A DNA stretch of 64,000 nucleotides from Candidatus Bathyarchaeota archaeon (GTDB lineage Archaea > Thermoproteota > Bathyarchaeia > Bathyarchaeales > Bathycorpusculaceae): NCBI GenBank assembly GCA_963733095.1, contig CAVTBV010000012.1:59915-123914 (forward strand), written 5' to 3'. Below the pieces are notes generated by a model. It did no database searches, was not told the origin of the DNA, and worked only from the letters and a program-made list of their open reading frames with translations. Position numbers and translations under genes: made by a program. This document shows, one piece after another, positions 4,456 through 64,000 of the stretch (its first letter is position 1; each line of letters starts with the position of its first letter).

Positions 4456-5487
4456 ATGCCCAGAACAACCCCTCCGTGGGAAATCAAACGTGAATTGCTA
4501 ACCAAAGCAGAGGACTCTACCAACCCAAAGTACGGTTGTAAACCTTCTGAGCGCCCAGCAAAAGAGTATATTAGGTATGGTACGATTAATTTGGATAAGC
4601 CTGCAGGTCCCACAAGCCATGAGGTTGCAGCTTGGGTAAAAAGAATCATGCATCTGGAAGCTATCGGGCATGGAGGAACCCTTGACCCCAAAGTCACAGG
4701 GATTTTACCCATCACCTTGGAAGATGCAACCAAGATGGTTCAGGCGTTACTCCACAGTGGCAAAGAATACGTCTGCGTAATGAAACTTCATGGGGATGTG
4801 CCTGAGGACCATGTTAAACGTGTTCTGACGGAGTTTGAGGACGAAATTTTTCAGCGTCCACCCCTGCGATCATCCGTTAAGAGGCAGTTAAGGACAAGGC
4901 GAATTTACTATAATGACTTCATCGAGTTAGATGGGCGTAATGTGCTCTTCAAAGTCGGTTGCGAAGGCGGCACGTACATCCGTAAACTCTGCTTTGACAT
5001 CGGCGAAATCCTCGGCGTTGGCGCCCACATGCAAGAACTTCGCCGCACACGAGCAGGACCATTTATCGAATCCAGCGCCAAAAAAGTCACATTGCACGAT
5101 GTAGCTTACTGGTTTGGCGAATTCGAAACTAAGAAAGACCAATCTTTTTTGTGCAAATTCATAGAGCCCATGGAAGTTGCATTGATGCAGATTCCGAAAA
5201 TGGTCGTTCGCGACTCTGCTGTTGACGCACTCTGCCATGGAGCCAATTTGACTGCGCCAGGGGTTCTACAAGTTGACACAGGCATAGTGAAAGACTCAAC
5301 AGTTGCGGTTTTCACGCTCAAAGGTGAAGCGGTGTCATTGGCGAAGGCTCTTGTTTCAACCCAAGAAATCATGGAGTTGACTCATGGTGCTGTAGCTGCT
5401 TCGTCACGTGTGTTGATGCCAAGAGGCACTTACCCGAAAGTTTGGAAGAGTGGGGGCGCCAATGAGCAAAGATCCAAAGAGCGTTGA
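4456..5487 (+). CDS. cbf5: H/ACA RNA-guided pseudouridine synthase Cbf5 (TruB family) with PUA domain
   Basis: INLDKPAGPTSHEV, GHGGTLDPKVTG (catalytic Asp), CEGGTYIRKLC, MQELRRTRAGPF. Confidence 0.96.
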   Translation: MPRTTPPWEIKRELLTKAEDSTNPKYGCKPSERPAKEYIRYGTINLDKPAGPTSHEVAAWVKRIMHLEAIGHGGTLDPKVTGILPITLEDATKMVQALLHSGKEYVCVMKLHGDVPEDHVKRVLTEFEDEIFQRPPLRSSVKRQLRTRRIYYNDFIELDGRNVLFKVGCEGGTYIRKLCFDIGEILGVGAHMQELRRTRAGPFIESSAKKVTLHDVAYWFGEFETKKDQSFLCKFIEPMEVALMQIPKMVVRDSAVDALCHGANLTAPGVLQVDTGIVKDSTVAVFTLKGEAVSLAKALVSTQEIMELTHGAVAASSRVLMPRGTYPKVWKSGGANEQRSKER

Positions 5488-6778: not shown

Positions 6779-6855
6779 TGGAGCCTCGAGCGGGCCTTGC
6801 TCCCGCGGCCTGCTGCTTACAAGGCAGCCGCTCTACTGGGCTGAGCTATCGAGGC
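6779..6855 (-). tRNA. tRNA-Thr(UGU), 77 nt, CCA encoded, non-canonical D/T loops
   Basis: Manual cloverleaf: GCCTCGA/TCGAGGC acceptor stem, GCTGC-CTTGTAA-GCAGC anticodon arm, GCGGG-AGCAAGG-CCCGC T arm, U73-CCA. Confidence 0.93.
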
Positions 6856-9489: not shown

Positions 9490-10224
9490 CTAAAGTCTTT
9501 TTGGATGGCCAACTACGCTAAGACAAATCGCACTCTCTTCAATTCCATCAGTGCCCAGTATTGAGTTGATTTCATCATCGAAGAAAGCCCCAACATGGCA
9601 AGATCCATAGGTAATGCTTACTGCCGCCAGAGCCAAGTTTTCCGCTATGTGCCCTGCATCCAAATAGATGTACCTGTAAGCTCTCTGAGAGTATTTCCAC
9701 TTTGACCTTCTAAAGATAGCCGTCCAGATGAAGACAACGGATGCATCTGCACACATTTCTTGGTCTAAAGCAGCGTGGGCTAATTTCTCGCCAAAACTTC
9801 CAAGCTTAATCTCTTCCAACGAATGATTCTTGATATTATAGTGGTAGATGCCTTTCTCCAGTTCTTCCACGTTGTTAACATAAATGTATGTCTCTATGGG
9901 GTATAATGCTCCAGCCGATGGTGCTGTGCGGAACTCGTAATTGTGTTCAGTTCTTTGGACGCCTGTAGATGTCCAAAGGAGAAAAGCCAAATCAACCTTG
10001 CTCAAAGGCTTAGTTGAGAATGTTCGTATGCTTTTACGTTTTTTAATTGCCTCAGTAAAGCTAAGGGTTGATTCTTGAAAGGATCTGGACAATTGAACGG
10101 CTTTACTGGCGGGATAGCTTTTGTAAACTTCAGGCTTGTTCGCCCAGTCCAAAGTACTACCCCAACTTTTGTTGCGAGAGTACTTTGTCTCAGTTTGAAA
10201 ATCGTCTCCAACGTTTTTTTCCAT
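9490..10224 (-). CDS. SagB/ThcOx-type nitroreductase-like dehydrogenase
   Basis: RKSIR.F, RTAPSAGALYPIETY, Y..RAYRYIYLDAGHIAENL.L, VGAF.DD. Confidence 0.9.
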   Translation of the reverse strand: MEKNVGDDFQTETKYSRNKSWGSTLDWANKPEVYKSYPASKAVQLSRSFQESTLSFTEAIKKRKSIRTFSTKPLSKVDLAFLLWTSTGVQRTEHNYEFRTAPSAGALYPIETYIYVNNVEELEKGIYHYNIKNHSLEEIKLGSFGEKLAHAALDQEMCADASVVFIWTAIFRRSKWKYSQRAYRYIYLDAGHIAENLALAAVSITYGSCHVGAFFDDEINSILGTDGIEESAICLSVVGHPKRL

Positions 10225-18226: not shown

Positions 18227-18303
18227 TGGAGCCTCGAGCGGGCCTTGCTCCCGCGGCCTGCTGCTTACGAGGCAGCCGCTCTACTGGGCTGAGCTATCGA
18301 GGC
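18227..18303 (-). tRNA. tRNA-Thr(CGU), 77 nt, CCA encoded, non-canonical D/T loops
   Basis: Identical to the tRNA at 6779-6855 except anticodon position 34. Confidence 0.93.
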
Positions 18304-18401: not shown

Positions 18402-19433
18402 ATGTCCCCACACAAAACCTCAACAGCCAAAAATCTGGGCGAACACAGAATAATCGAAATCATTCAAAACCACCTCACTCCCATGCCCAACATGCCTGTT
18501 CCGTTTGGAGACGACGTTTCCGCAGTTACCATCAATCAAAACCAGGTCGCTGTGCTAAAAACCGACATGTTAGTAGCTAAGACCGATGTCCCTGACGAAA
18601 TGTCTCTCTTCCAAGCTGCAAGAAAAGCCTTAATCATGAACATCAGCGATTTCGCTTCAAAAGGTGTCCGGCCCACAGCGGCGCTTGTTGCTTTGGGGTT
18701 ACCTGCTAACTTTAACCAAAAAAACATCGAAGAAATAGGATACGGCTTGAATGCCGGAGCTCAAGAATACGGCGCGTACATAATCGGCGGCGACACAAGT
18801 GAAACCTCCGACTTAATTATTTCAATCTCGCTCTATGGTACGGCAGACCAGTCGGCCTTGATACTGCGAAGCGGCGCAAAACCCGGCGAAATTTTGGCAG
18901 TTACAGGTTTTTTCGGCAAATCAGCGGCAGGGTTACGTTTACTACTTGGCGGATGTTTAACTTTCAAGAACGCAAAATCCCTCTTAGATGCAGTTTTTAT
19001 GCCCAAAGCAAGGCTAGCGGAGGGTTTGGCGCTTGGCGGTTGCAGTGCGGTTTCGGCGTCTATGGATTCCAGCGATGGTTTAGCTTGGACTCTGCATGAG
19101 CTTGCGCGTTTGAGTAACGTAGGATTTGAACTTGACAAGGTCCCAGTTGCTCCAGAAGTTAAGCGATTTGCAGAGCTGAACAGTCTTGACGCGTCTGAAT
19201 TGGCGCTTTACGGCGGCGAAGAATACGAGTTAGTCGTAACTGTTAAGCCTGAAGGATGGGCTACGGCGGTGGCAGCTGTGGAAGCAGCAGGCGGACAATT
19301 ATTGCCCATAGGAAAAACAATAGAGCCAAAACAAATTTCGTTAAAAACCGATGGCAAGCATGTTCCGATTGAGGTGCGTGGTTTTGAACACTTCAAGAGC
19401 CAAATTGAGCCTTCTGGTCCAAAGTATAATTAA
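18402..19433 (+). CDS. thiL: Thiamine-monophosphate kinase
   Basis: LGEH.II, FGDD, KTDMLV, NISDFAS.G.RP, IIGGDT, MDSSDGLA, GGEEYELV. Confidence 0.94.
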   Translation: MSPHKTSTAKNLGEHRIIEIIQNHLTPMPNMPVPFGDDVSAVTINQNQVAVLKTDMLVAKTDVPDEMSLFQAARKALIMNISDFASKGVRPTAALVALGLPANFNQKNIEEIGYGLNAGAQEYGAYIIGGDTSETSDLIISISLYGTADQSALILRSGAKPGEILAVTGFFGKSAAGLRLLLGGCLTFKNAKSLLDAVFMPKARLAEGLALGGCSAVSASMDSSDGLAWTLHELARLSNVGFELDKVPVAPEVKRFAELNSLDASELALYGGEEYELVVTVKPEGWATAVAAVEAAGGQLLPIGKTIEPKQISLKTDGKHVPIEVRGFEHFKSQIEPSGPKYN

Positions 19434-19971
19434 TTATGGTAATACACGAGGCTGCCAAGTACGGTGTTTTTCCTAGGCTGATTTTTTCTCCAAATCGCTG
19501 GGCAAAGAGTTCGGCTTTTTTGGGTAGGCCAACGTGGTCGCCGAGAATGAAAAGGCTGTTTTCTGCAAGTTGAATTTGGGTTATGTCCTTGCCGTCTTCC
19601 TCAAGTACATAGATTTTGTGTGTTTGTGCTTTGGCTTTGAGGAGGGCTTCGAAGCTTGTTTTGTCCTTGGTTATGCCCGGGTGGGGTTTTCCGGAGAGTA
19701 TTTTTTTCAGGATTACTTGCCAGGTGCCCATGTCTGTGCGCACGTCATAGAGTGTTTCTCCGTTGATTTGGATGTGGATAGGCGGGTTTGGCGGACCATT
19801 TAAGATGGCGTGGAAAGTCACGTCCCTGCGCAATCCATGAGAAAGAAACAGGCTACTAACGATGCATTCGTGGGCTATGTCGAGTCTGCCAGCATCGTGG
19901 AGGCTTTGGAAGTTTGAGTCAGTTTGACCTATACGTGAGAAAAGGATGAATTCCCGCAGCAACACAGTCAC
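19393..19971 (-). CDS. trmY: tRNA (pseudouridine54-N1)-methyltransferase (SPOUT)
   Basis: REFIL, AGRLDI..ECI...LFLSH.LRRDV, FILGDH.GL, ISLG..PYLA..CI. Confidence 0.9.
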   Translation of the reverse strand: MTVLLREFILFSRIGQTDSNFQSLHDAGRLDIAHECIVSSLFLSHGLRRDVTFHAILNGPPNPPIHIQINGETLYDVRTDMGTWQVILKKILSGKPHPGITKDKTSFEALLKAKAQTHKIYVLEEDGKDITQIQLAENSLFILGDHVGLPKKAELFAQRFGEKISLGKTPYLAASCITIINYTLDQKAQFGS

Positions 19972-20305: not shown

Positions 20306-20383
20306 GGGGCTCTCGGCTAGCTTGGTCTAGGCTTGTAGACTTGGGCTCTATAGACTCCGGTTCAAATCCGGGGAGCCCCACCA
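20306..20383 (+). tRNA. tRNA-Pro(UGG), CCA encoded
   Basis: GGGGCTC/GAGCCCC acceptor stem, CTTGGGC anticodon loop, canonical TTCAAAT T loop. Confidence 0.92.
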
Positions 20384-22177: not shown

Positions 22178-23617
22178 CTAAAACAACGATTTGACTTTAT
22201 CCAACACACCCGACATTGCCATATGCCAGTAAGTGCGTCGCTTCATAGGATTGCCCGAGAAAAACCCGCCCAATCGCCTGCTCCATGAACCGTAGAAATC
22301 GCGGTAGCAGCCATAAAGCTCCTCTTGGACCTGGTGGGTGGAAAGAGTTTCGGTTGGCATGATGGCATGAATCATGTCGTAGTGGTTCCAATTACGATCT
22401 TCGATCCATCCGTTGCGTTCAGCTTCGGCGTAAACTTCGGTGCCTGGGAAAGGTGTTAAGATTCCGAACATGATGAAATCGGGGTCTAAGTCGTTGACGA
22501 ACTCTCTGAGTTGACGGACGGATTGGTAGGTTTCTTTGCGGTTGCCGATGATGACCATAGCGTGGGCGAAGATTCCGTTGTTACGCAACAACTTCACCGC
22601 AGTCTTTGCATCCTGAGGAGTAATGCCTTTCTTAAAGTAATCAAGCGTGTTAGGATCCGAATTCTCCACCCCAAGCAGCACCCAGCTTAACCCTGACTTA
22701 GCCAACCTTGGCAGGACGTCTTTGTTTCGGTTAATGTCGTCACAGCGTGCCTGAACAAACCATGTCACGTCAGGAACCTTTTTCGCGATGATTTCTTCTG
22801 CGATTTCTTCGGGGCGCTGTCCAGTTCCAAAATTGTCGTCGGTTAACCAAATCATCTCACTTCCAAACTCCCGATTACAATACGCCATCTCGTCTGCAAC
22901 ACGCTTCGCCGATTTAAGACGCCAGCACCCTTGCCAGTGACGCCACTGAGTACAGAAGGTACATTGGTGATTACATCCGCGTGCTCCTTCGATGAGAGCG
23001 TACGGCGCCCGTTTGCCAGCCATCACAGAGAAGTGGTATTTGAGCATGTTGTCTTTGACTAGGTGGTAGCCTGGAAACGGCAAATCATCCAGGTTTGCAA
23101 TCAAAGCCCTCGAAGGATTATGCACAACCTCTCCCCCGTTCCTAAAAGAGATGCCAGCAACGTTTTCCAACCTTTCGCCCTGTTGGCACGCACCCACCAA
23201 TTCCGCTAAAGTTTGTTCTCCCTCATTGCGGATAATAACATCGATTTCAGGGTGAAGTTGGAGGCTGTCTTGGGCTGTTGCAGTGAAGTGCTGTCCACCT
23301 GTTACCGTGAGGGTTTTTGGAGCCATGCGTTTAGCGGTTTCAAGAGTCTTTGCGACAGCGTAAGTGTTGCATGTAGCCAGAGAAGCACAGGCCACAATAT
23401 CGGGGTTCGAATCAGCCATATGTTCCTCCATTTTCTTCCAATCAACTTTCTCCGCGTTGCAATCCAGAATCTCCAGTTGGACATTGTTGTTTTCTCTTTC
23501 CAGATAGGCGGCGAGTTGGATGATACCATAGGGCGGCGGCAAGTATTCGCCCATGACAAACCATATGTCTTTAGGCGGCTCGACGAACATGACTTTCAAG
23601 TGCTGTTCCCTATCCAC
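22178..23617 (-). CDS. B12-binding radical SAM enzyme (class B, BchE-like)
   Basis: N-terminal cobalamin-binding domain (PPYGIIQLAAYLE, VTGGQHFT); CNHQCTFC CxxxCxxC motif; LGVEN; TPFPGT. Confidence 0.92.
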   Translation of the reverse strand: MDREQHLKVMFVEPPKDIWFVMGEYLPPPYGIIQLAAYLERENNNVQLEILDCNAEKVDWKKMEEHMADSNPDIVACASLATCNTYAVAKTLETAKRMAPKTLTVTGGQHFTATAQDSLQLHPEIDVIIRNEGEQTLAELVGACQQGERLENVAGISFRNGGEVVHNPSRALIANLDDLPFPGYHLVKDNMLKYHFSVMAGKRAPYALIEGARGCNHQCTFCTQWRHWQGCWRLKSAKRVADEMAYCNREFGSEMIWLTDDNFGTGQRPEEIAEEIIAKKVPDVTWFVQARCDDINRNKDVLPRLAKSGLSWVLLGVENSDPNTLDYFKKGITPQDAKTAVKLLRNNGIFAHAMVIIGNRKETYQSVRQLREFVNDLDPDFIMFGILTPFPGTEVYAEAERNGWIEDRNWNHYDMIHAIMPTETLSTHQVQEELYGCYRDFYGSWSRRLGGFFSGNPMKRRTYWHMAMSGVLDKVKSLF

Positions 23618-48014: not shown

Positions 48015-48126
48015 TGGCGCCGGGAGGGGGATTTGAACCCCCGTGGCCCCGAGAGGCCACAAGCTAATTGGTACCCTTATAGAGGTATCTCCAGGCTTGC
48101 TCCCTGCCTGGCTAGGAGACCCCGGC
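48015..48126 (-). tRNA. tRNA-Ser(GGA) with a 23-nt intron at 37/38 (48066-48088), CCA encoded
   Basis: GCCGGGG/TCCCGGC acceptor stem, long variable arm, GGGGG-TTCAAAT-CCCCC T arm, BHB-like intron. Confidence 0.93.
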
Positions 48127-54982: not shown

Positions 54983-56137
54983 TTATAATTCTGTCCCGTT
55001 CCAAAATATCACTTTGTTGTAATGAACCGTGCTGGATTGCAAACTGTCTTCGTAGACTACGTCAAGATTTGGTCCATACTGCTTTAGCAAAATCGTCACG
55101 TTGCCCCATACGCTAGCTGAAAGGTTGTCTGCGGGCCACAGACCCCAAATTGTGTCGTTTGGCCCTCTAAAACCAAACCCGTAACCTGCTGGGAGCACAT
55201 ACGCTATTCGGTTTTGAACAAGGTTTTGTGGTTGTGGATTTGTATTTATGTAATTCCAGAATTGCTTCATCGCGTTAAGCTGGTCGGGTTGCAGAATGTT
55301 TTCAGTATAGTTCAGGTTGCTGTCAAAGACCAAGATGAATTTGGCTCCATTTTGGTAAGCATACACCATGTCGTCGTATAGTTGAGTTGCATTTTCTAAG
55401 TAGGGCGCCTGGGTATATGTATCTGTTATCATTACACCCCAGTCCTCATTGCTCATTGTGGCTGCTCCGCGGCACAGCGCAAGCTGAAGGGGCGTACTCA
55501 AGTTATAAGCGAATTCTGCTAAGACCACATCGTAGCCTCCTTGGTAGTCAAATTCATAAAGGGCGTAATCAGATGTCATCAGAGGAATAGCATCAAATTT
55601 GAAAACTGCCAAGTCCTGGTTAAGGGCAATGACAAACTTGTTAGCGGCGTCGGTGTAGTTGTCTGCTTGCTGCACAAGCATCAAAGATATGTTACCATTT
55701 TCAACTGAAGATCTGGCGCGGTCTATCTGTGCGCCTCCAGCTTCATCATAGGGAAACAACCCCCAGAAACGGTTTCCCCAAGTTTGCTTAGCCTGAATTA
55801 CCCATTGAGTCTGGTTGAAGGCTTCGGGGTTTATATGCCAGAAGGGTGCAAAGGTCAGTCCGCTATTATTGATGTACTGACAAACTCCGTTAAGCTCAGA
55901 CATGTTGTAGGTTATTACTGTACTGCCAACAACGATAAAATTAGTGTAGCTGCTAACTTGGTTTACAAGTTCTTCAAAGCTTCGCACGTCTGAGAATGCT
56001 ATGTCAAGTCCGAAATAAACATCTGGAGTGTATTTCGTTGGTTGACTTGCAATGTGGATGCCCGCCACTACCCCAATCAGCAATATGACAAGCAAAATTA
56101 TTAGAAGATATATGTGTAATCTTTTCATCCACATCAC
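54983..56137 (-). CDS. Membrane-anchored extracellular hypothetical protein (possible glycoside-hydrolase-like barrel)
   Basis: N-terminal TM helix; aromatic-rich; YDEAGG, TSDYALY.FDY..GYDVVLAEF, ALCRGAA...WGVMIT. Confidence 0.65.
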   Translation of the reverse strand: MMWMKRLHIYLLIILLVILLIGVVAGIHIASQPTKYTPDVYFGLDIAFSDVRSFEELVNQVSSYTNFIVVGSTVITYNMSELNGVCQYINNSGLTFAPFWHINPEAFNQTQWVIQAKQTWGNRFWGLFPYDEAGGAQIDRARSSVENGNISLMLVQQADNYTDAANKFVIALNQDLAVFKFDAIPLMTSDYALYEFDYQGGYDVVLAEFAYNLSTPLQLALCRGAATMSNEDWGVMITDTYTQAPYLENATQLYDDMVYAYQNGAKFILVFDSNLNYTENILQPDQLNAMKQFWNYINTNPQPQNLVQNRIAYVLPAGYGFGFRGPNDTIWGLWPADNLSASVWGNVTILLKQYGPNLDVVYEDSLQSSTVHYNKVIFWNGTEL

Positions 56138-56673
56138 AATTTATGAAGAAAATAATCTTTGACTTCTTTACGCTCACTACCTTTAGAGCACTCATTTATC
56201 CTTAAAATATTTTGTTTTTGAGCACACACTTAAAAAACCAGAAATAGTTCCGTTTGAAGGCTTCAACGAACTTTAGTCCAGAGTCCAAATTTTTTAGGCT
56301 TAAAAAACTGCAAATACCATATGCACTATGTTTATCCAGATATAATTATCCTGACAATTATTAACATAATTCTTAATTATCTTGGAAGTAAGAAAACAAA
56401 AACCCAACAATTATCCACCATTTTGTCACCATAATTTTAAATTATTCCATAATTTTTGTGGTTGTACGTTTGCGCGTGGATTTGAAAGTGGATAAACCCA
56501 AGGTTGATTTGCCAGCCTAAGCATTTTCGATAGTTTGGATGGCTGAAAAAACTCTAATGCCGCTTCCATACTGGTTTGTGCAATGAACCATTATTAGGAT
56601 CCAAATATGAGTGTAGCAAAACTACACATGTCCCAAAAGTTATTATCCTATACCAAACTTTTAGGCTGGTGCC

Positions 56674-57952
56674 ATGATGAGAGAAAAAGCTAAAGAATGG
56701 CTAAAAATTGGCACCTTAACAGACGAATGGATTAAAGCATCCTATGACAGTTCAGACGCTCAAAGTGTTTGGAAATATCATGATCGAATGAACACTTTTT
56801 TGGAATTTGTGGGCTTAACGGATGTAGAGTTTATTGAGGGTTTCAAGCGGTCAAAGGATCGTTTAGAGTGGGCTAAACAGACAGGTGCCAAAGTCATAGC
56901 GTTCTACAATGATCGGGTGCAAAGGGGTTATGCAACCAACACAGTTAGAGCAGAAGTTTCCACGGTTAGAGCCTTCTGCCGAGACAATGCCACCACACTG
57001 ATCATTCAGCGTCGGAAAATAGCTAAAGCCAAAAGCGCAAAGGGAGAACATGAGTTCACACGCGAAGAATTAGCCAAGATGTTCTACGTTGGCGATGTCA
57101 GAGGCAAAGCAGTCTTAAGCACTGCAGTAAGTTTAGGTTTCAGCGTGGAAGATTTCTCTGAGCTAAAAAGAGAATACATTGAGGGGTTAGTGAACAAGGC
57201 TTTAACGGAAAAGATTGACTTTATCGGGTTCGACTATGAACGGGGAAAAACAGGGGTTGAATCAAGAAGCCACTTGACACCTGAAGCAGTTAACAGCCTC
57301 AAAGCATGGTTTGAATACATTGACACAAAGAGAGCCGAAAAAGGTCTACCTAAAAGTGAGTGGGTTTGGTGCAATGGTAACGGTGGGCACCTAAACGAGC
57401 AGACACTAAACGACATTGTAAAAGACTTGGTGAAGAAAGCCAATATTTCAGTCACAGGAAAGCTAAGGTTTCACTTATTGCGCAAGTTCTTAATGAGTAG
57501 CCTTCATGATGCTGGGTTTGACAGTTGGGAAACGAAAAGAGCGTTAGGCAAAGAAATTCCCACAAGCGATTCTACTTATCTTAGAGGGTTAAGCCGAAAA
57601 GTAACTGAAAAATTCCCTCAAGCTTACTCGTACATTCGGTTAAGTGGGTTCGCTAACCACAATGGAACAAAACTTGAGGAAATGCAGGCTAAAATCCAAC
57701 AGTTAGAGATCGCTCAGGAACAGTTGACGCTTCAGAATCAAGCACTTCTCAGGAATGATCGAGTTTGCTATTCCTAAAGAAACCATGAAAAAAGCAATCT
57801 ATGAAGCAGCCAAAACACTACCCGATATGAACGAAAACAAACTTGAGCAAATACGAGTTAACTTACAATCTACTCAGAATCCATCAGAAATGCTGAACAC
57901 CTTGAGAAACATACAAACAATTGGGCAAGTCAGAATAAACGTGCGATCTTAA
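56674..57952 (+). CDS. Tyrosine recombinase/integrase-like protein with atypical active site; probable +1 frameshift near 57754 separating a C-terminal tail (57755-57952)
   Basis: SAM-like N-domain (TVRAEVSTVRAF), FTREEL.KM, RGKTG, RFHLLRKF (HxxR), LGK, STY. Confidence 0.8.
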
Positions 57953-58052
57953 GTTTTATTAGTTCTTATAATTGTATTTTTTATTAGAAATTCAATTCTT
58001 ATTAAAAACTTAAAAGGTCAACTCTGGATAAAGGATATGGGAAGGAAAACTT

Positions 58053-58604
58053 ATGGTTGACCTCTTAAACGTATCATTAGCAGTAATAGCTATTTTTTCA
58101 GCTTTATTTGTAGCATTATCCGAAGGCTTTAAAATTACACTCGGCTTTCGAGGTTCTGAAGAAACTCGACAAAGGAAAGAGCGGATTGATATCAAACTGC
58201 ACCGCGAGCTTAATGATGAAATTGAAGATTTCTTGTCAAGTGATGCATGTCGAGGTGGAAGTCCAGATCGCATTATAGGAATTCAAGATTTAGGTTTCAA
58301 GGCAATGCTCGCTGAGGATGCAGCTAATGACTTAATAACTCGCTCAGACAAAAGCATGAAGAATGCAATCAAGAACTTGTTAGCTGGAACTTTGATATTG
58401 TTTGTCACAGTGGCGGTTCTTATTAGTGTGGATTTTACACAACTTGATAATTTAATATTTGCTGGAGTTTATGTTGGCATTACCGCTTTTCTTTTTTGGA
58501 GATTTGCTTCAAGCACAATGAAATCACTTCATTATAGAGAGCAGCTTATCACACTTGACGATGAGCCGACACTACAAAAAGCTGAAGAAGTTGACCTTGA
58601 ATAA
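58053..58604 (+). CDS. Hypothetical membrane protein (3 TM)
   Basis: Hydrophobic N-terminus and two C-terminal TM helices. Confidence 0.7.
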   Translation: MVDLLNVSLAVIAIFSALFVALSEGFKITLGFRGSEETRQRKERIDIKLHRELNDEIEDFLSSDACRGGSPDRIIGIQDLGFKAMLAEDAANDLITRSDKSMKNAIKNLLAGTLILFVTVAVLISVDFTQLDNLIFAGVYVGITAFLFWRFASSTMKSLHYREQLITLDDEPTLQKAEEVDLE

Positions 58605-58859
58605 AGCCGTATATTAGCCCTTCACCCTCTTATCTAAGTTGAGCTTCGAGCTTTTTCGACAAAATTTTGTGGGTTTGAACCCTTGAGGGTTCATGATAAG
58701 CCCATGGTGAAAAGTTAGGATAGTACAACTGAAACTGTATTTTTTCTATTGACATCTTAGTATGTTATCGCGCACAAACAACCCTTTGCAAGCACGGAAA
58801 AGAAAACCAACGAACAAGCCTCAACACCCAAACAAAACCCAAAACAAACCTCTTCGCCC

Positions 58860-58918
58860 CCGATGGGTCAAAATCTGCGCTCAGGGAGTCGAAATGGGTA
58901 CCCATTTTATGTAGTGTC
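58860..58918 (+). repeat. ~60-bp repeat copy R1 with 16-bp palindrome AAATGGGTACCCATTT (58892-58907)
   Basis: About three quarters identical by manual alignment to R2 (59276-59334). Confidence 0.75.
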
Positions 58919-58963
58919 CAATGAACGTTCAGTTTTTTAAAACGGTGCTTTAGTTTAATGTGC

Positions 58964-59107
58964 CTAACTTGTTACATGAAAATGACGTTTACATTCGGGA
59001 CATTGGTAGGATTTAATGTGAAACACACAGTTTTCGATTTCCTTTTCATGGTTTGTGACTTCACTTCCGCAGCTTGGGCATTTAACAATCAAAAAATATT
59101 CAGTCAT
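58964..59107 (-). CDS. 47-aa zinc-ribbon microprotein
   Basis: MTEYFLIVKCPSCG...EIENCVF..KSYQCPECKRHFHVTS. Confidence 0.7.
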   Translation of the reverse strand: MTEYFLIVKCPSCGSEVTNHEKEIENCVFHIKSYQCPECKRHFHVTS

Positions 59108-59275
59108 TACGGTTCATCTATGGTAGAATGCAGTTTTGTAATTTGAAGTCTTGTGAGAACATTATGATACAACAACTCCATACAATCGAAAAACAAGTGC
59201 ATCCAATGGAAAAGCGTTCACATGGAATAGCGGAAAAGATCGCACCACATCCAAACAACAAAACTCTACTCCCCT

Positions 59276-59334
59276 CCGATGGGTTCAAATACGCGTAAGC
59301 AACGTCGAATGGGGTACCCATTTTTCGTGGTGTC
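59276..59334 (+). repeat. ~60-bp repeat copy R2
   Basis: CCGATGGGT...GTCGAA..GGGTACCCATTTT..GT.GTGTC, 416 bp after R1. Confidence 0.75.
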
Positions 59335-59764
59335 GCTATCAGAATTAGGTTTTCTAATTGACAAGATAAATATTGAAAATCCTAATGCCCGCGATATTTT
59401 CTAAGTGCGAGAGTTGCTGCTCTATCAGGGGGATGATGTCGCCGTCCCAACCTTAGGGCAAAGTAGTTCTTCCGAGGGAAGTTATCCCTATATTCTTATT
59501 GTTGGCGTCTAGATAAAAGCTTTCATATCTTAGCATTCGTGGGCACAACGCATGTACAACTAAATTTTACAAACTGTTCTAGTTTACATATACCCAACTT
59601 ATAGAGGCAGGAAAAATTCGCGAATAATCCATTTAAGTGCAGCAAATCAAGCATTAGAAATTTTGTGAATAAAATGTTTCAATTGTTACGTCTCATGCTA
59701 CAAAAATTATAATAATATAATTCATAGTAATATTATGAGCATATAATGTGCTTGAAGGAATAGG

Positions 59765-60856
59765 ATGATTGTAAAACGTAATCTTTTAAGAATTACGATT
59801 GCTATTCTTATTCTCACCAGCTTGTTTTTATCACTTAATATTGACTCGGTTTTAGCTCAAAAAGACAGCAATAATGGTATAACAGTGACAATTAATACAT
59901 CAAATGGCGAAATCAAATATGATAAGCCGCTCATAATCCAAGGAGTTGTTTATAATACAACGACATATGAACCAACTAGGGCAACGATTGTAATACAAAT
60001 TTTAAAGGATAATACGGTTTTATACACAGCAACAACCGTTTCCTCATTACCAGACGGCAAGTATCAAGATCAGGGATATTGTGTTTGTCAAACAGGTACT
60101 CTCCAAATTACAGTATTAGCAACTTCACAAGGATATAATGCAAGCGCATCAACAACTGTTGTTTCAGAATATTATAAAACGATTTTTGACTTATTGATTG
60201 TCTATTTGATTCCATTTATACTATTGTCTGCTTCAGTAATCGTCTTCGTAATTGCGATTGTGAGTCAGACGGCTGCTAAAAAGAATAAACACGTGAAACA
60301 ATTGGGGCTTGATTCTGGCAAAGTATTTGTCGCTATTATGTTTGTACTTCTTTCTCTCCTCACAGCTAGCATTGTCGCTTTCTTTCTTTTTGTTCCTAGT
60401 CAAATCGGAGCAAGTAGTCCAATCGGGCTAGTTGTAAACTCTAATGGAAATGAAACTCAATGGGTGGTAAACCTTGGGGGACAGAGAACTATAGAATCCT
60501 CGCAATACCTTGGAGGAATTCAAATCCCAGTATATGTTTTAGTTATGAGTTTTCTCGGCGCTTATGTATTTTTCCTAACAAAAATCCGAACTCTTTTAGA
60601 AATACCCAACGGAAATGACTTGACTAAGCAATCATTGGAGTACTTAGCGCGTTTCTTCATTGCTCCTCTATTAGCAATTGCATTGTTTCTAGTTCTTTGG
60701 CAATTGGAAGTTAGGGGTACTTTCATTTTGGGTGCGGTGAGTTTTGCTACTGGCTTAATAATCGAGCTTGTAACCGACAAAATATTAGAATTCGCTAAAA
60801 ACGTAATTGGTGTCAAAGAAACTCCTAAAACTAACATTATTACAAAAAAGCCTTAG
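59765..60856 (+). CDS. Signal peptide + Ig-like domain + multi-TM membrane protein
   Basis: Beta-rich ectodomain; TM region with SFLGAY, RFFIAPLLA and AVSFATGL. Confidence 0.7.
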   Translation: MIVKRNLLRITIAILILTSLFLSLNIDSVLAQKDSNNGITVTINTSNGEIKYDKPLIIQGVVYNTTTYEPTRATIVIQILKDNTVLYTATTVSSLPDGKYQDQGYCVCQTGTLQITVLATSQGYNASASTTVVSEYYKTIFDLLIVYLIPFILLSASVIVFVIAIVSQTAAKKNKHVKQLGLDSGKVFVAIMFVLLSLLTASIVAFFLFVPSQIGASSPIGLVVNSNGNETQWVVNLGGQRTIESSQYLGGIQIPVYVLVMSFLGAYVFFLTKIRTLLEIPNGNDLTKQSLEYLARFFIAPLLAIALFLVLWQLEVRGTFILGAVSFATGLIIELVTDKILEFAKNVIGVKETPKTNIITKKP

Positions 60857-61060
60857 GATCCACTTATCTTTCCTAAAGAACAAATAAAACAAATTTTTGT
60901 GCAAAAACAGAGCCCTTGGGTGCGAGGAGGGTGCCCTTTGGGGCGGTATGGTCGACTTTTTATGTTTTCTTTCCTAAGTCTTTTTTTTCTATGACGGCGG
61001 AAAAGGAGATTTAGGGGGTCAAAGGAAGAGTGTATTGTCATTTCATTTATTCCTAAGAGA

Positions 61061-61120
61061 CGGTGGGTGAATTCTACGCTACGGGCATAGAAGAGGGCGT
61101 CGGGGTCGAGGTTACTCCCT
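61061..61120 (+). repeat. Degenerate third copy R3 of the island repeat
   Basis: CGGTGGGTGAATTCTACGCT versus R1 CGATGGGTCAAAATCTGCGCT, followed by GGGGTCGAGGTTACTCCC. Confidence 0.4.
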
Positions 61121-61298
61121 CAGGTCAGCTGAGAGCGTTATTTGGCAAGTGAAACTTTGCTAGTTAAAACTCATTGAAATATTAAATAATTAAAATTAGC
61201 ATATATTATATTTACATAAAAAATTAGAAAAAGTTTTAAATTGAAAGGCTCTGTTAACCATACTTAGATTTCTAATCAATTTTATAGGAGGTGAAAAA

Positions 61299-61784
61299 TT
61301 GACTAAAACTTTTATTCTATGGGTTCATGGAGCATCAGTTATACCCGAATATACAAAGGCATTTACGGGACATGACTACGGATTGTACTTGCGCCCAACT
61401 GGTTACGGCTCAATAGTAAAACAGAAGGTAGGTACAGACAACTGGTTTCATTTCGCGATTCCTTCTGGAAGTAAACTCTGTGGTATTCCTGGTGATGCTC
61501 GGGTATCGCTTCAAGAAGCGTTTGTACGATTCAAAATTAACACTGGGGCTGTCATAAAACAAATTACAGTTCACGAAAATGATCATCCAAACAGCAGTAG
61601 CCCAAGAATTTTTGACTCTGGTTCAATCTCAATTACGGGACAAGATACTGAATATGCCATCCCGATTGTTCCTTATAAAATATGCACAGGTCCTATTGTG
61701 ATATGTGTATATGTCCATTGGGAAGCTGATAACGGCGAAGTTTTGTTCACTGGTGCAGGTGCACGCTTTGAAGCCACCGAATAA
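61299..61784 (+). CDS. DUF6623-like beta-sandwich protein
   Basis: WVHG.SV..E...G......NWFHFAIP pattern; SD GGAGGTG and TTG start. Confidence 0.6.
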   Translation: MTKTFILWVHGASVIPEYTKAFTGHDYGLYLRPTGYGSIVKQKVGTDNWFHFAIPSGSKLCGIPGDARVSLQEAFVRFKINTGAVIKQITVHENDHPNSSSPRIFDSGSISITGQDTEYAIPIVPYKICTGPIVICVYVHWEADNGEVLFTGAGARFEATE

Positions 61785-61794
61785 AGCAAATCAA

Positions 61795-61847
61795 TGGTGG
61801 CGGAGTAAAATGGTTAAGGCTTAACGAGATGATTACTCCGTTCACCA
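61795..61847. other. Bulged hairpin immediately after the DUF6623-like gene (terminator or recombination site)
   Basis: TGGTG/CACCA, CGGAGTAA/TTACTCCG and GTTAA/TTAAC. Confidence 0.55.
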
Positions 61848-62226
61848 CCTCATTCTTTTGGTAAGTTAGTGCGCGATTCGGTTATTTGTATGATAGAAAG
61901 GCAAAATAGGCTCAAATTAGCCCTAAAATAGCGATATCGTTGGATGTTAGCTCATGTTTTTGAGTTTAACTTATGGATTCTGGAAATATTTTTTTGAGCT
62001 AATCTAACCAGTTTTTAGATTCTCCTTGTGTCGATTTATGCAGGAAACTCACTGTTAGCTATTGTAATTCTTAAAATCTCTTCGCTCAACATTTTTCTTG
62101 CTTGACATTTTATTCCATCGCTTGGTATTATCGGTGGGTGATCGTATTCAGTCCAAAAGACTATTTTTAACAGTGTTAGATTTGGGGCATCCATTATTTT
62201 TTCGCATAAACAGCTTTCTGGAAGAT

Positions 62227-62560
62227 TTAGGCGCAGTTTGAGCAGAAATAATGTTTGGATATTAGACCTTTTGAGATTGCACAATCCTTGCAAAGTGGTT
62301 TTAAGCATTTTTCACAGACTTTTGCATGTTCATCACATACTAATTTTTCGCATTCGACTCATACATTAGTTGGAAAATCTTCGCATGGTCTATCTAAGAA
62401 CTTTGTTTTTGAGCATTTCAGTTCATCGAGCACTAATTCTCCTGAATATCCCAAATAATCTCTTTTGAATTGTTTTGGAGAGTTTGGAAGCTTGTAACTT
62501 AAATGGAAAATTGGAACTGCAAAAACACCCAAGGAACCCAGTTCTAAAATATCTTTTTTC
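62227..62560 (-). pseudogene. Remnant with a Cys-rich multi-zinc-finger C-terminus and in-frame TGA at 62359-62361
   Basis: ...PC.DF.TNV*VECEKLVCDEHAKVCEKC.KPLCKDC.....HYFCSNCA*; no start codon found. Confidence 0.55.
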
Positions 62561-62671
62561 TTAAGTGAGAGGTGGTTTGAACGATTTGAATGAACTGTGG
62601 CAAATCTTAAGTGGACTCGTCTCTTATTGCATATATCAAATTGGATTAAACACCGAATAAAGTGATGTTAC

Positions 62672-63710
62672 TTGACTAATTGGTTCGTAATTTATGACCT
62701 TCTAACTTACAATCAATATCGCATTTATGAGGATATGATTCTATGTGAAGCAAAATATTCTCGACGCAATAGTAGTCTTAGAACAAAACTTGTTGTCCCA
62801 TGTGAGAAGAAATTTTTTGACATAAAGGAAAATGATAGAGTGGTTTATTATGCTAGAGGCGCTGGAGTGATTGTGGGTATATTTAAGATTCTTTCAAGCA
62901 AAACATTTTTTATAAAAAGCCCAGATGTAGAAAGGTATCTTTTTGCAAAAAAAAATTAGAAAAATCAGAGGTTTAAAAGATGAATACTTGAATTTCAAAA
63001 AATTAATTTATAATTCAAATTTTAATGGAATAGATGTAAATGAAATGCTTGAAAAGAAAATGTCGTGGAGTATTCTAGATGATAATGATTACAGCAAAAT
63101 AGAACAGGCATATAATAACCGTTCTTACCAAATAAAAATCAAGAATAAGCCAAATGAATTTGGATCTCATGGTTGGATAATTGATCCAGAGGTTAGCAAT
63201 GGTATTCTTAGTTACTATAATGGACGAGCCACATCTTTCTCAAGTCTCTTTCTAGCTTCAATCTTTGGATTGCTAACTTTAGCAGCGATACTGCAATCAG
63301 TGTTTAGTCAACCAAATTTTACTCTAATGAATAATTGGGTTGTTTTACTGCTCTCATCATTCCTTTATTTTTTCTTCATCATAGTGGGTTATTACACCCT
63401 AAATACATACTTTCATTATACGGGCATAGCTGATAGAATAAAGAATTTCGCATTAGACATTCCTTATCTAAAGGAACTGGAGAAAGTGTGGGCTGTTGGT
63501 GAAAAAGACAATCGCTACTATGAAACTAATCTTTCACAAGTTATAATGGACAAGGAAAGACATTATAGTAATTCGTTATTGAAAAAATATATTCTTAGAC
63601 ATGCTGCATTATTCATTGGAGGATACATAATAGCACTCTTAGCGTTAAGTTTACTAATATATTGGAATCTACTATTACAATTTTGGAGCATTATTAGTAA
63701 ATTCATGTGA
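62672..63710 (+). CDS. EVE/PUA-like domain fused to a 3-TM membrane domain, split at an A9 run (62947-62955)
   Basis: IKENDRVVYYA....IVGIFKI.S is EVE-like; deleting one A joins it to IRKIRG...YLNFKKL...W.IL...DY..I and the TM helices. Confidence 0.6.
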
Positions 63711-64000
63711 AAATCAATAATGCTCAATATCTACCTACTTGGTTTTGTTAGGGTCTAATCTTGCAAGGAAACGCTTAATATTGAAAATGCTTTACTGAGA
63801 GTTGGATTAAAAATTTTTTATGTGGCAATCTTAAGAACAAAGCCAGCATTTAATTATAACCCGTGCTAATAGTTGATGGCGTCAAGTACAAGCCTTGGAC
63901 TCATAAAGATGAAGAGAAAGAATTCCATCCATTAGTAAAAGCACACAATCATATGGGCTAACAAAGAGGAATAGAGAATGGTTAAAGTTTCAAAGGATGG

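Follow-up and report, generated by a model that had tools for sequence, protein, structure and literature searches.

In canonical tRNAs, the elbow is held together by a continuous stack of A58, G18, G57, G19 and C56, in which G18 is intercalated between positions 57 and 58 and held to pseudouridine 55 (Psi55) by one hydrogen bond; the outer face of the G19-C56 pair is read by the L1 stalk and by RNase P (PMC4810234). U54 forms a reverse-Hoogsteen pair with A58, and eukaryotic (yeast) initiator tRNA has a longer A54-A58 pair (PMC7912444). Cytosolic tRNAs are treated as having G18, U54 and Psi55 without exception (PMC7912444, PMC4810234). This report concerns two tRNA-Thr genes, with anticodons UGU and CGU, that carry A18, A54 and G55 at these positions. 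They lie in a 64,000-nucleotide stretch of a Candidatus Bathyarchaeota archaeon assembly (GCA_963733095.1, contig CAVTBV010000012.1, positions 59,915 to 123,914), referred to here as the window.

T-loops outside tRNA, such as those of the FMN and cobalamin riboswitches and of introns, follow the consensus YGNRA, with a G at position 2. Their intercalating nucleotide is almost exclusively adenosine, joined by two hydrogen bonds to the sugar edge of this G, and tRNA, with U at position 2, is the exception among T-loops (bioRxiv 10.1101/2022.12.26.521914). In the modification enzymes, A54 blocks Psi55 formation by human PUS10, and yeast Pus4 requires U54 (PMC7749629). Literature searches, with GtRNAdb outside their scope, turned up no earlier account of an A18/G55 tRNA, of archaeal elongator tRNAs with A54 or of unusual tRNA-Thr in Bathyarchaeia. 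The tRNA, the A54-A58 pair and the G-plus-A T-loop joint are each known; their combination in a cytosolic elongator, the intermediates that lead to it and the repeated coupled switching are new.

The two genes probably encode working ACA/ACG threonine tRNAs of a Bathyarchaeales (Bathy-6) archaeon whose elbow was rebuilt in two layers and now holds a joint of the riboswitch type.

Two tRNA-Thr genes with A18, A54 and G55

The UGU gene reads GCCUCGA-UA-GCUC-AGCCCAGUA-GAGC-G-GCUGC-CUUGUAA-GCAGC-AGGCC-GCGGG-AGCAAGG-CCCGC-UCGAGGC-U-CCA. Direct reading gives the acceptor stem GCCUCGA/UCGAGGC, the D stem GCUC/GAGC and the T stem GCGGG/CCCGC, together with the anticodon arm GCUGC-CUUGUAA-GCAGC, the variable loop AGGCC, and U73 followed by CCA. 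The minimum-energy fold is the cloverleaf, with all four stems (7, 4, 5 and 5 base pairs) formed. The anticodon loops, CUUGUAA in the UGU gene and CUCGUAA in the CGU gene, each have seven nucleotides, U33, a purine at position 37 and an NGU anticodon, and nucleotide 34 is the sole difference between the two window genes. The acceptor end, again read directly, carries G1-C72, C2-G71 and U73, as is typical of archaeal tRNA-Thr, and U73 is present in all 56 distinct sequences of this tRNA-Thr family.

The Rfam tRNA model RF00005 matches the UGU gene over its full length (1-71) with 57.7 bits (E 7.5e-10). Both tRNA-Thr genes exceed the gathering score of 29 bits, and the UGU gene scores above the neighbouring canonical tRNA-Pro gene. 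In the Rfam alignment the D-loop A falls at position 18, where the consensus has the leading G of its GG, and the A-G of the T loop falls at positions 54-55, where the consensus has U-U. G18, U54 and U55 are near-universal traits but no requirement of the Rfam model, and the window genes have A18, A54 and G55 in their place. G19 and C56 are retained, and the G19-C56 combination is invariant among all A18 alleles. The original prediction of a tRNA-Thr with A18 and the T loop AGCAAGG at this locus is thereby confirmed by ARAGORN and by the Rfam score, with the gene placed on the minus strand (Table 1). The elbow variant is real, and neither chance nor assembly error, because more than 100 assemblies, independent of one another and produced by different studies, contain exactly this sequence.

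Distribution and conservation

A scan for the A18 D arm (TAGCTCAGCCCAGTAGAGC) in one genome per GTDB species returned at least 118 loci. The matches listed are nearly all Bathyarchaeia metagenome-assembled genomes (MAGs) from soil, peat, wetland and termite gut, among them 'Bathy6' MAGs and Candidatus Bathycorpusculum (order Bathyarchaeales). Together with the window they hold 92 Thr-UGU and 26 Thr-CGU genes with A18. Among the same matches, 82 other UGU genes are identical to that of the window across the 74-nt body, in more than 80 Bathyarchaeia species genomes. At related loci the flanking genes are syntenic with those of the window, yet they share just 79-85% nucleotide identity. The upstream regions are likewise diverse (89 of 90 are distinct), with a common T/A-rich box at about -50 to -30. 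An identical gene amid diverged flanks points to strong purifying selection on the exact tRNA-Thr(UGU) sequence.

This pattern bears directly on whether the genes are decaying or unexpressed copies, or a product of MAG binning and assembly, an explanation that is hardly credible. Nothing beyond the unusual nucleotides themselves speaks for it. Decay or artefact does not fit an Rfam score above that of a canonical neighbour, the identity of the gene in so many assemblies while its flanks diverge, the upkeep of the upstream box, or the presence of the sequence in metatranscriptome assemblies, and the conservation pattern effectively refutes it.

Another scan, with a 15-nt T-arm pattern, proved too short to be selective: about 115 of its 120 matches were chance hits in bacteria. 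The five Bathyarchaeia matches were all tRNA-Thr genes, four of them complete and with A18, and the fifth ending at a contig edge.

The elbow was also seen outside Bathyarchaeia. A GC-rich contig binned as Thermoplasmata (nzgw66) carries a tRNA-Thr(GGU) gene (L188:6267-6341, plus strand) with A18, an identical D arm and the T loop AGCGAAG, apparently an independent case of the A18/A54/G55 elbow, from a second phylum of archaea. Three tRNA-Cys(GCA)-like genes (L157:1885-1961, minus; L167:484-560, plus; L175:5038-5113, plus) with the same A18 D arm and the T loop AGCGAAG lie on contigs of Binatia/'Deltaproteobacteria' MAGs. They have A73 where tRNA-Cys normally has U73, one has C33, one has a defective 3' strand of the acceptor stem, and ARAGORN calls one of the three. 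Their neighbours (DDE transposase, APH kinase, Fic and methyltransferase genes) gave no functional hint.

An allele series on one tRNA body

For comparison, genes with the same anticodon arm preceded by G18-G19 were scanned for in metagenome contigs and then in genomes. The matches listed are almost entirely from Bathyarchaeia, and the counts drawn from them are lower bounds. Ordered by elbow, the G18 and A18 genes form a series. At one end stand genes with G18 and the T loop UUCAAAG or UUCAAAU (U54-U55), all of them CGU genes whose acceptor and T stems deviate slightly. Outside the A18 group, the most frequent state combines G18 with AUCAAGG or AUCAAAG (A54-U55) and includes the complete genomes CP170178 and OY970280. 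A few genes keep G18 with GUCAAAG (G54) or ACCGAAG (A54-C55); the latter T loop, with G57, occurs in six tRNA-Thr(CGU) genes, among them those of L399 (CAVRJR), L370 (CAWABA) and L361 (JBEKTQ). Four genes have A18 with AUCAAAG or AUCAAGG, and the remaining state, with 114 genes, joins A18 to a G55 T loop (AGCAAGG, AGCGAGG or AGCAAAG); the UGU genes of the complete chromosomes OY970286.1 and OY969706.1 are of this type.

The steps between these states are small. Relative to the commonest G18 allele (38 copies among the matches listed), the UGU gene of the window differs at two of 74 positions, by G18A and U55G only: that allele has the D loop AGCCCGGUA, which differs at 18 only, and the T loop AUCAAGG, which differs at 55 only. 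The CGU gene of the window likewise differs from the commonest G18 CGU allele by G18A and U55G only. Locus L155 holds the one-step intermediate, G18A alone (A18/U55).

On this sequence comparison, A54 is older and far more widespread than the A18/G55 pair. Its wide occurrence with G18 and U55 intact argues for a change in two layers, and the existence of A18/U55 intermediates argues that the change was stepwise and not simultaneous. The proposal that both elbow partners had been rewired together therefore stands for the coupling of 18 with 55, which the counts below bear out; it does not stand for simultaneity, nor for A54, which changed separately and earlier.

Coupling of positions 18 and 55

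The A18 and G18 scans both left the T loop free, so the counts carry no bias in that respect. They cover all genes with a 9-nt D loop among the matches listed. G55 accompanies A18 in 114 of 118 genes, the other four having U55 and none C55. The 221 G18 genes include no G55 at all, with 215 U55 and six C55. Reduced to the 56 distinct sequences, A18 occurs with G55 in nine and with another nucleotide in four, against 0 and 43 for G18; Fisher's exact test on these distinct sequences, which ignores phylogeny, gives 9e-8.

Trees of neighbouring proteins suggest that the pair has switched repeatedly. For the CGU gene, in a tree built on its AIR-synthase-like neighbour at 80 loci, all 300 of 300 bootstrap replicates require at least five changes at position 18 and at least five at position 55. 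The U54 forms are basal in this tree, and the two A18/U55 loci L126 and L363 pair up as the sister group of an A18/G55 clade with 100% support, the order expected for the path from G18/U55 through A18/U55 to A18/G55. In the Cbf5 tree the two G18/U55 loci are not sisters (0% bootstrap), and one clusters at 100% with five genomes of the A18/G55 type. A18/G55 also occurs on a second background, a CGU gene with the D loop AGCCCAGCA and the T loop AGCAAAG, found in four assemblies together with a G18/U55 UGU gene. It was not copied from the resident paralogue, because the UGU gene there is still G18/U55. By the neighbour-gene trees, the paired 18/55 state has changed at least five times.

The same counts could arise if A54 had relaxed constraint on the elbow and A18 and G55 were near-neutral changes that travel together in a 77-nt gene without touching each other. 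Several observations lean that way: position 55 drifts to C beside G18 in the six ACCGAAG genes, position 54 drifts to G, the human and yeast enzymes that make Psi55 fail when position 54 is A (PUS10) or not U (Pus4), and the identity of the UGU and CGU paralogues outside nucleotide 34 makes gene conversion plausible. Such hitch-hiking is nevertheless unlikely. It would have to leave G18/G55 absent from all 221 G18 genes listed even though A18/U55 alleles exist, and to fix A18/G55 with 100% conservation across more than 80 species. The second CGU background (C20, A59) cannot be put down to conversion by its resident paralogue, and riboswitch T-loops select the same combination of G with A. A search for covariation of D-loop positions 16/17/17a with T-loop positions 59/60, as possible extra C-G pairs within the 'variable pocket', gave no clear signal.

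Evidence for a role in decoding

Across 127 assemblies, in 35 of which both UGU and CGU genes were seen, none holds two different genes for one anticodon; the search covered genes that share the tRNA-Thr anticodon arm or D arm. Codon counts from 14 window genes of confident identity put ACA at 28% and ACG at 15% of threonine codons. With one gene per anticodon and 43% of threonine codons to be read by them, tRNA-Thr(UGU) and tRNA-Thr(CGU) are most likely the working decoders of ACA and ACG. About one UGU gene in three lacks an encoded CCA, and the genomes concerned need an RNase Z and a CCA-adding enzyme that accept the elbow. The exact tRNA sequence, with zero differences, also occurs in contigs from three of four metatranscriptomes, and these contigs extend into the flanks of other strains.

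A special-purpose tRNA outside translation, for instance a threonine donor insulated from EF-1A or the ribosome, or one that evades a toxin or viral factor recognising the elbow, is very improbable. It has a precedent in the non-proteinogenic tRNA-Gly of Staphylococcus aureus, which lacks G18/G19 and is described without the U55/C56 set, and the tRNA-Cys-like genes of bacteria that share the elbow are of atypical appearance (A73, one C33) and adjoin a transposase or Fic gene. An extra copy beside a canonical isoacceptor of the same anticodon, as expected of a non-proteinogenic tRNA, was not found in the searched assemblies. In the window genome the elbow is present in the decoders of both ACA and ACG, which account for 43% of threonine codons. 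The Thr-type acceptor end is normal, as are the T stem and G19-C56. No viral link emerged either: when viral contigs were scanned for the tRNA body, the sole matches were two phage tRNAs that are unrelated and have canonical T loops.

The elbow types are mixed within cells. At least 14 assemblies, including the complete chromosome OY970286, combine an A18/G55 Thr-UGU gene with a G18/U55 Thr-CGU gene, and four others show the reverse. One ThrRS and one EF-1A must therefore serve both elbows, which speaks against the suggestion that the variant co-evolved with ThrRS, its editing system or EF-1A. The presence of the same elbow in the Thermoplasmata tRNA-Thr(GGU) and in the bacterial tRNA-Cys-like genes points the same way. 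Within this lineage the suggestion was assessed solely through the within-genome mixture, because no ThrRS was found among the annotated window open reading frames (about half of 47 candidates), nor was Pus10 or EF-1A.

Across 1.74 Mb from these genomes, tRNAs of other isotypes are canonical (43 Pro and 4 Ser, plus Ala, Cys, Gly, Trp and Tyr). The expectation that the change would be specific to tRNA-Thr thus holds for these sampled isotypes. Three isolated loci from the Bathyarchaeia scans have tRNA-Met (L396), tRNA-Val (L211) and an intron-bearing tRNA-Met (L451) with the T loops UCCGAAU (C55) or CUCGAAU (C54), and T-loop relaxation may not be strictly limited to tRNA-Thr in every genome. 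At five further loci (L414:6806-6916, L466:3436-3541, L471:1996-2103, L263:6766-6873 and L344:97-204), ARAGORN labels the genes as intron-bearing Cys, Ala or Ser tRNAs. In each, a tRNA-Pro(UGG) body is interrupted behind the anticodon stem by some 30 extra nucleotides; an intron at a non-canonical site, with the isotype mislabelled, is the likely explanation.

A proposed route to a riboswitch-type joint

The first layer, older and widespread in the order, would be the change from U54 to A54, giving a purine-purine A54-A58 pair as in eukaryotic initiator tRNA; it would have come after, or together with, a purine at position 60. The A54-A58 contact had been proposed from the sequence, and the initiator precedent for it holds (PMC7912444). 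The second layer, in the sublineage of the window, would be G18 to A18 followed by U55 to G55. It would convert a tRNA-type joint (U at position 2, intercalating G) into the joint of riboswitches and introns (G at position 2, intercalating A), with A18 intercalated in the T loop and bonded, by analogy, to the sugar edge of G55. A54 may first have abolished Psi55 and loosened the constraint on position 55; fixation of A18, and later of G55, would have followed. The G19-C56 outer face read by RNase P and the L1 stalk is retained, and processing and translation could continue.

A G-plus-A joint transplanted into the tRNA elbow would account for the occurrence of G55 only with A18, for the rare and seemingly transitional A18/U55 state, and for the untouched G19-C56 and purines 57/58. 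We infer the hydrogen-bond geometry, along with normal aminoacylation and decoding of the A18/G55 tRNA. Psi54, Psi55, m1Psi54 (N1-methylpseudouridine) and m5U54 (5-methyluridine) should be impossible on a tRNA with A18/A54/G55 because U54 and U55 are missing; the prediction that these tRNAs are non-substrates for the Psi54/Psi55 synthases and TrmY follows from the same chemistry.

Several points weigh against this reconstruction. The geometry of the A18-G55 contact rests on analogy, position 1 of the T loop is A54 and not the Y of the riboswitch consensus, and no selective advantage of A18/G55 was identified. The trees are neighbour-joining trees with bootstrap, built on single neighbouring proteins from MAGs. 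Independent events may be overcounted if positions 18 and 55 moved together, by gene conversion between the UGU and CGU paralogues or by exchange of alleles among strains; neither process would explain the complete absence of G18/G55 among the listed genes. A divergent canonical Thr-UGU or Thr-CGU paralogue outside the searched genes is conceivable, and the metatranscriptome contigs are weak evidence of transcription, with DNA carry-over possible. A Bathyarchaeales Thr-GGU gene was not found in the scanned loci or metagenome contigs; the five Thr-GGU genes on metagenome contigs are all of bacterial type, with bacterial-style D loops, and four of them stand beside tRNA-Gly and tRNA-Tyr genes.

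More tentatively, it is possible that in a free-living archaeal order the G18-Psi55 contact of a cytosolic elongator tRNA, among the most conserved tertiary contacts known in biology, has been exchanged for the A/G solution of riboswitches and has toggled repeatedly between the two, as a natural double-mutant cycle. Widespread uncultured archaea of soil, peat and gut probably run ACA/ACG threonine decoding on tRNAs that lack G18, U54 and Psi55, and natural G18/U55, A18/U55 and A18/G55 alleles exist on an otherwise identical 74-nt body. These alleles make testable the energetic and functional value of the 18-55 contact, the interchangeability of tRNA-type and riboswitch-type T-loop joints and, as the same cell holds modified and unmodifiable tRNAs, the contribution of Psi55 and m1Psi54. 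Many enzymes, models and annotation heuristics assume G18/U54/Psi55, and rules that use the elbow as a universal mark fail for this lineage. The elbow should surprise tRNA specialists. If the riboswitch-type joint is real and alters handling, through escape from Pus10, Cbf5 and TrmY or through E-site or RNase P kinetics, it would amount to an isoacceptor-specific regulatory layer for ACA and ACG codons. It would also offer a ready-made orthogonal elbow for tRNA engineering.

Genomic neighbourhood

The window is ordinary archaeal chromosome, with genes for glycerol-1-phosphate (G1P) dehydrogenase, Cbf5, Topo VI A/B, ABCE1, aIF5B and LonB; the features discussed here are collected in Table 1.

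Table 1. Positions of tRNA genes, elbow sites and selected protein genes in the window.
Feature	Positions	Strand	Support and remarks
tRNA-Thr(UGU)	6779-6855	-	ARAGORN and Rfam RF00005; CCA encoded; A18/A54/G55 elbow
tRNA-Thr(UGU) D loop AGCCCAGUA	6834-6842	-	A14-G15-C16-C17-C17a-A18-G19-U20-A21; A18 = 6837, G19 = 6836
tRNA-Thr(UGU) T loop AGCAAGG	6795-6801	-	A54-G55-C56-A57-A58-G59-G60; A54 = 6801, G55 = 6800, C56 = 6799
tRNA-Thr(CGU)	18227-18303	-	ARAGORN and Rfam, 56.2 bits; body and elbow as in the UGU gene
tRNA-Thr(CGU) elbow sites	A18 = 18285; T loop 18243-18249	-	
tRNA-Pro(UGG)	20306-20383	+	ARAGORN and Rfam; D-loop GG, T loop UUCAAAU; canonical elbow
tRNA-Ser(GGA), 23-nt intron	48015-48126	-	Intron-aware ARAGORN; T loop UUCAAAU, canonical
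Cbf5 (TruB-family pseudouridine synthase)	4456-5487	+	Pfam; NCBIfam TIGR00425, 446.8 bits (cut-off 238)
TrmY-family SPOUT methyltransferase (m1Psi54 enzyme family)	19393-19971	-	Pfam PF04013, 140.4 bits (cut-off 25.5)
SagB-family peptide dehydrogenase domain protein	9490-10224	-	
B12-binding radical SAM methyltransferase-like protein	22178-23617	-	
Phage-integrase-family gene	56674-57777	+	

The Pro and Ser tRNAs of the window, predicted to be canonical, were both located and are so. All 43 orthologues of the tRNA-Pro(UGG) gene at related loci have the T loop UUCAAAU. The tRNA-Ser(GGA) intron lies at the canonical position 37/38; the gene was reported neither by ARAGORN run without introns nor by the Rfam tRNA model, even at E<=0.1, and its T arm surfaces in Rfam as a weak tmRNA-clan fragment match at 48026-48043.

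Genes for two relevant enzyme families lie close to tRNA-Thr genes that lack U54 and U55. Cbf5, whose synthase family can make Psi55, is encoded about 1.3 kb away from the UGU gene, and its synteny extends to related genomes. The TrmY-family gene, placed between tRNA-Thr(CGU) and tRNA-Pro, is within 1.1 kb of the former; its product scores 149.6 bits against the NCBIfam TrmY model NF002560, below the cut-off of 183. Both arrangements recur in related genomes, and the proximity is probably coincidental synteny.

Two further window proteins, of the SagB and radical SAM families, may be peptide-maturation enzymes; no link between them and the tRNA-Thr genes was found. In the last 8 kb of the window (56000-64000), next to the phage-integrase-family gene, GC content falls from about 0.44 to 0.35-0.38, and this segment may be an integrated element.

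Comparison with known systems

The T loop itself resembles those of riboswitches and introns (FMN, cobalamin, group I/II). As in these, position 2 is G (G55), position 4 a purine (A57) and position 5 an A (A58), and an adenosine from the partner loop, here A18, is the candidate intercalator between positions 4 and 5; variants with AGCGA (G57) also fit the G-N-R-A part of YGNRA. Unlike riboswitch T-loops, the tRNA-Thr loop has A at position 1 in place of U or C, and its two bulged nucleotides are G59-G60 and not N-Y. The setting also differs, as this is a tRNA elbow in which C56 (position 3) still pairs with G19, and the contact would be made there.

Initiator tRNA hallmarks include an A1:U72 pair and a run of G-C pairs in the anticodon stem, both absent from this tRNA-Thr, as is the CAU anticodon. 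What tRNA-Thr shares with eukaryotic initiator tRNA-Met, and with tRNA-Ala(AGC), is A54 for U54 and, as predicted for tRNA-Thr, the A54-A58 Hoogsteen pair (PMC7912444, PMC7749629); it also has a purine at position 60, G60 where the initiator has A60. With G60, a UGU or CGU anticodon and G1-C72 as its first pair, its T loop is not of the initiator type. The eukaryotic A54 tRNAs keep G18 and U55, and the tRNA-Thr described here is an archaeal elongator.

tRNA-Pyl and tRNA-Sec are also without the standard elbow. The non-proteinogenic tRNA-Gly of Staphylococcus is, like tRNA-Thr, a natural cytosolic tRNA without G18, and is described without the U55/C56 set (PMC4574755). It loses G19-C56 too, whereas tRNA-Thr keeps this pair, and it exists as extra copies beside proteinogenic isoacceptors, with a role in the cell wall, whereas tRNA-Thr is apparently the sole gene for each anticodon. 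Many metazoan mitochondrial tRNAs likewise depart from the G18/G19 and T-Psi-C rules. Their loops are shortened or missing and their partners have co-evolved (PMC4810234), whereas the Bathyarchaeales tRNA-Thr keeps its loop sizes and architecture and differs in base identities only.

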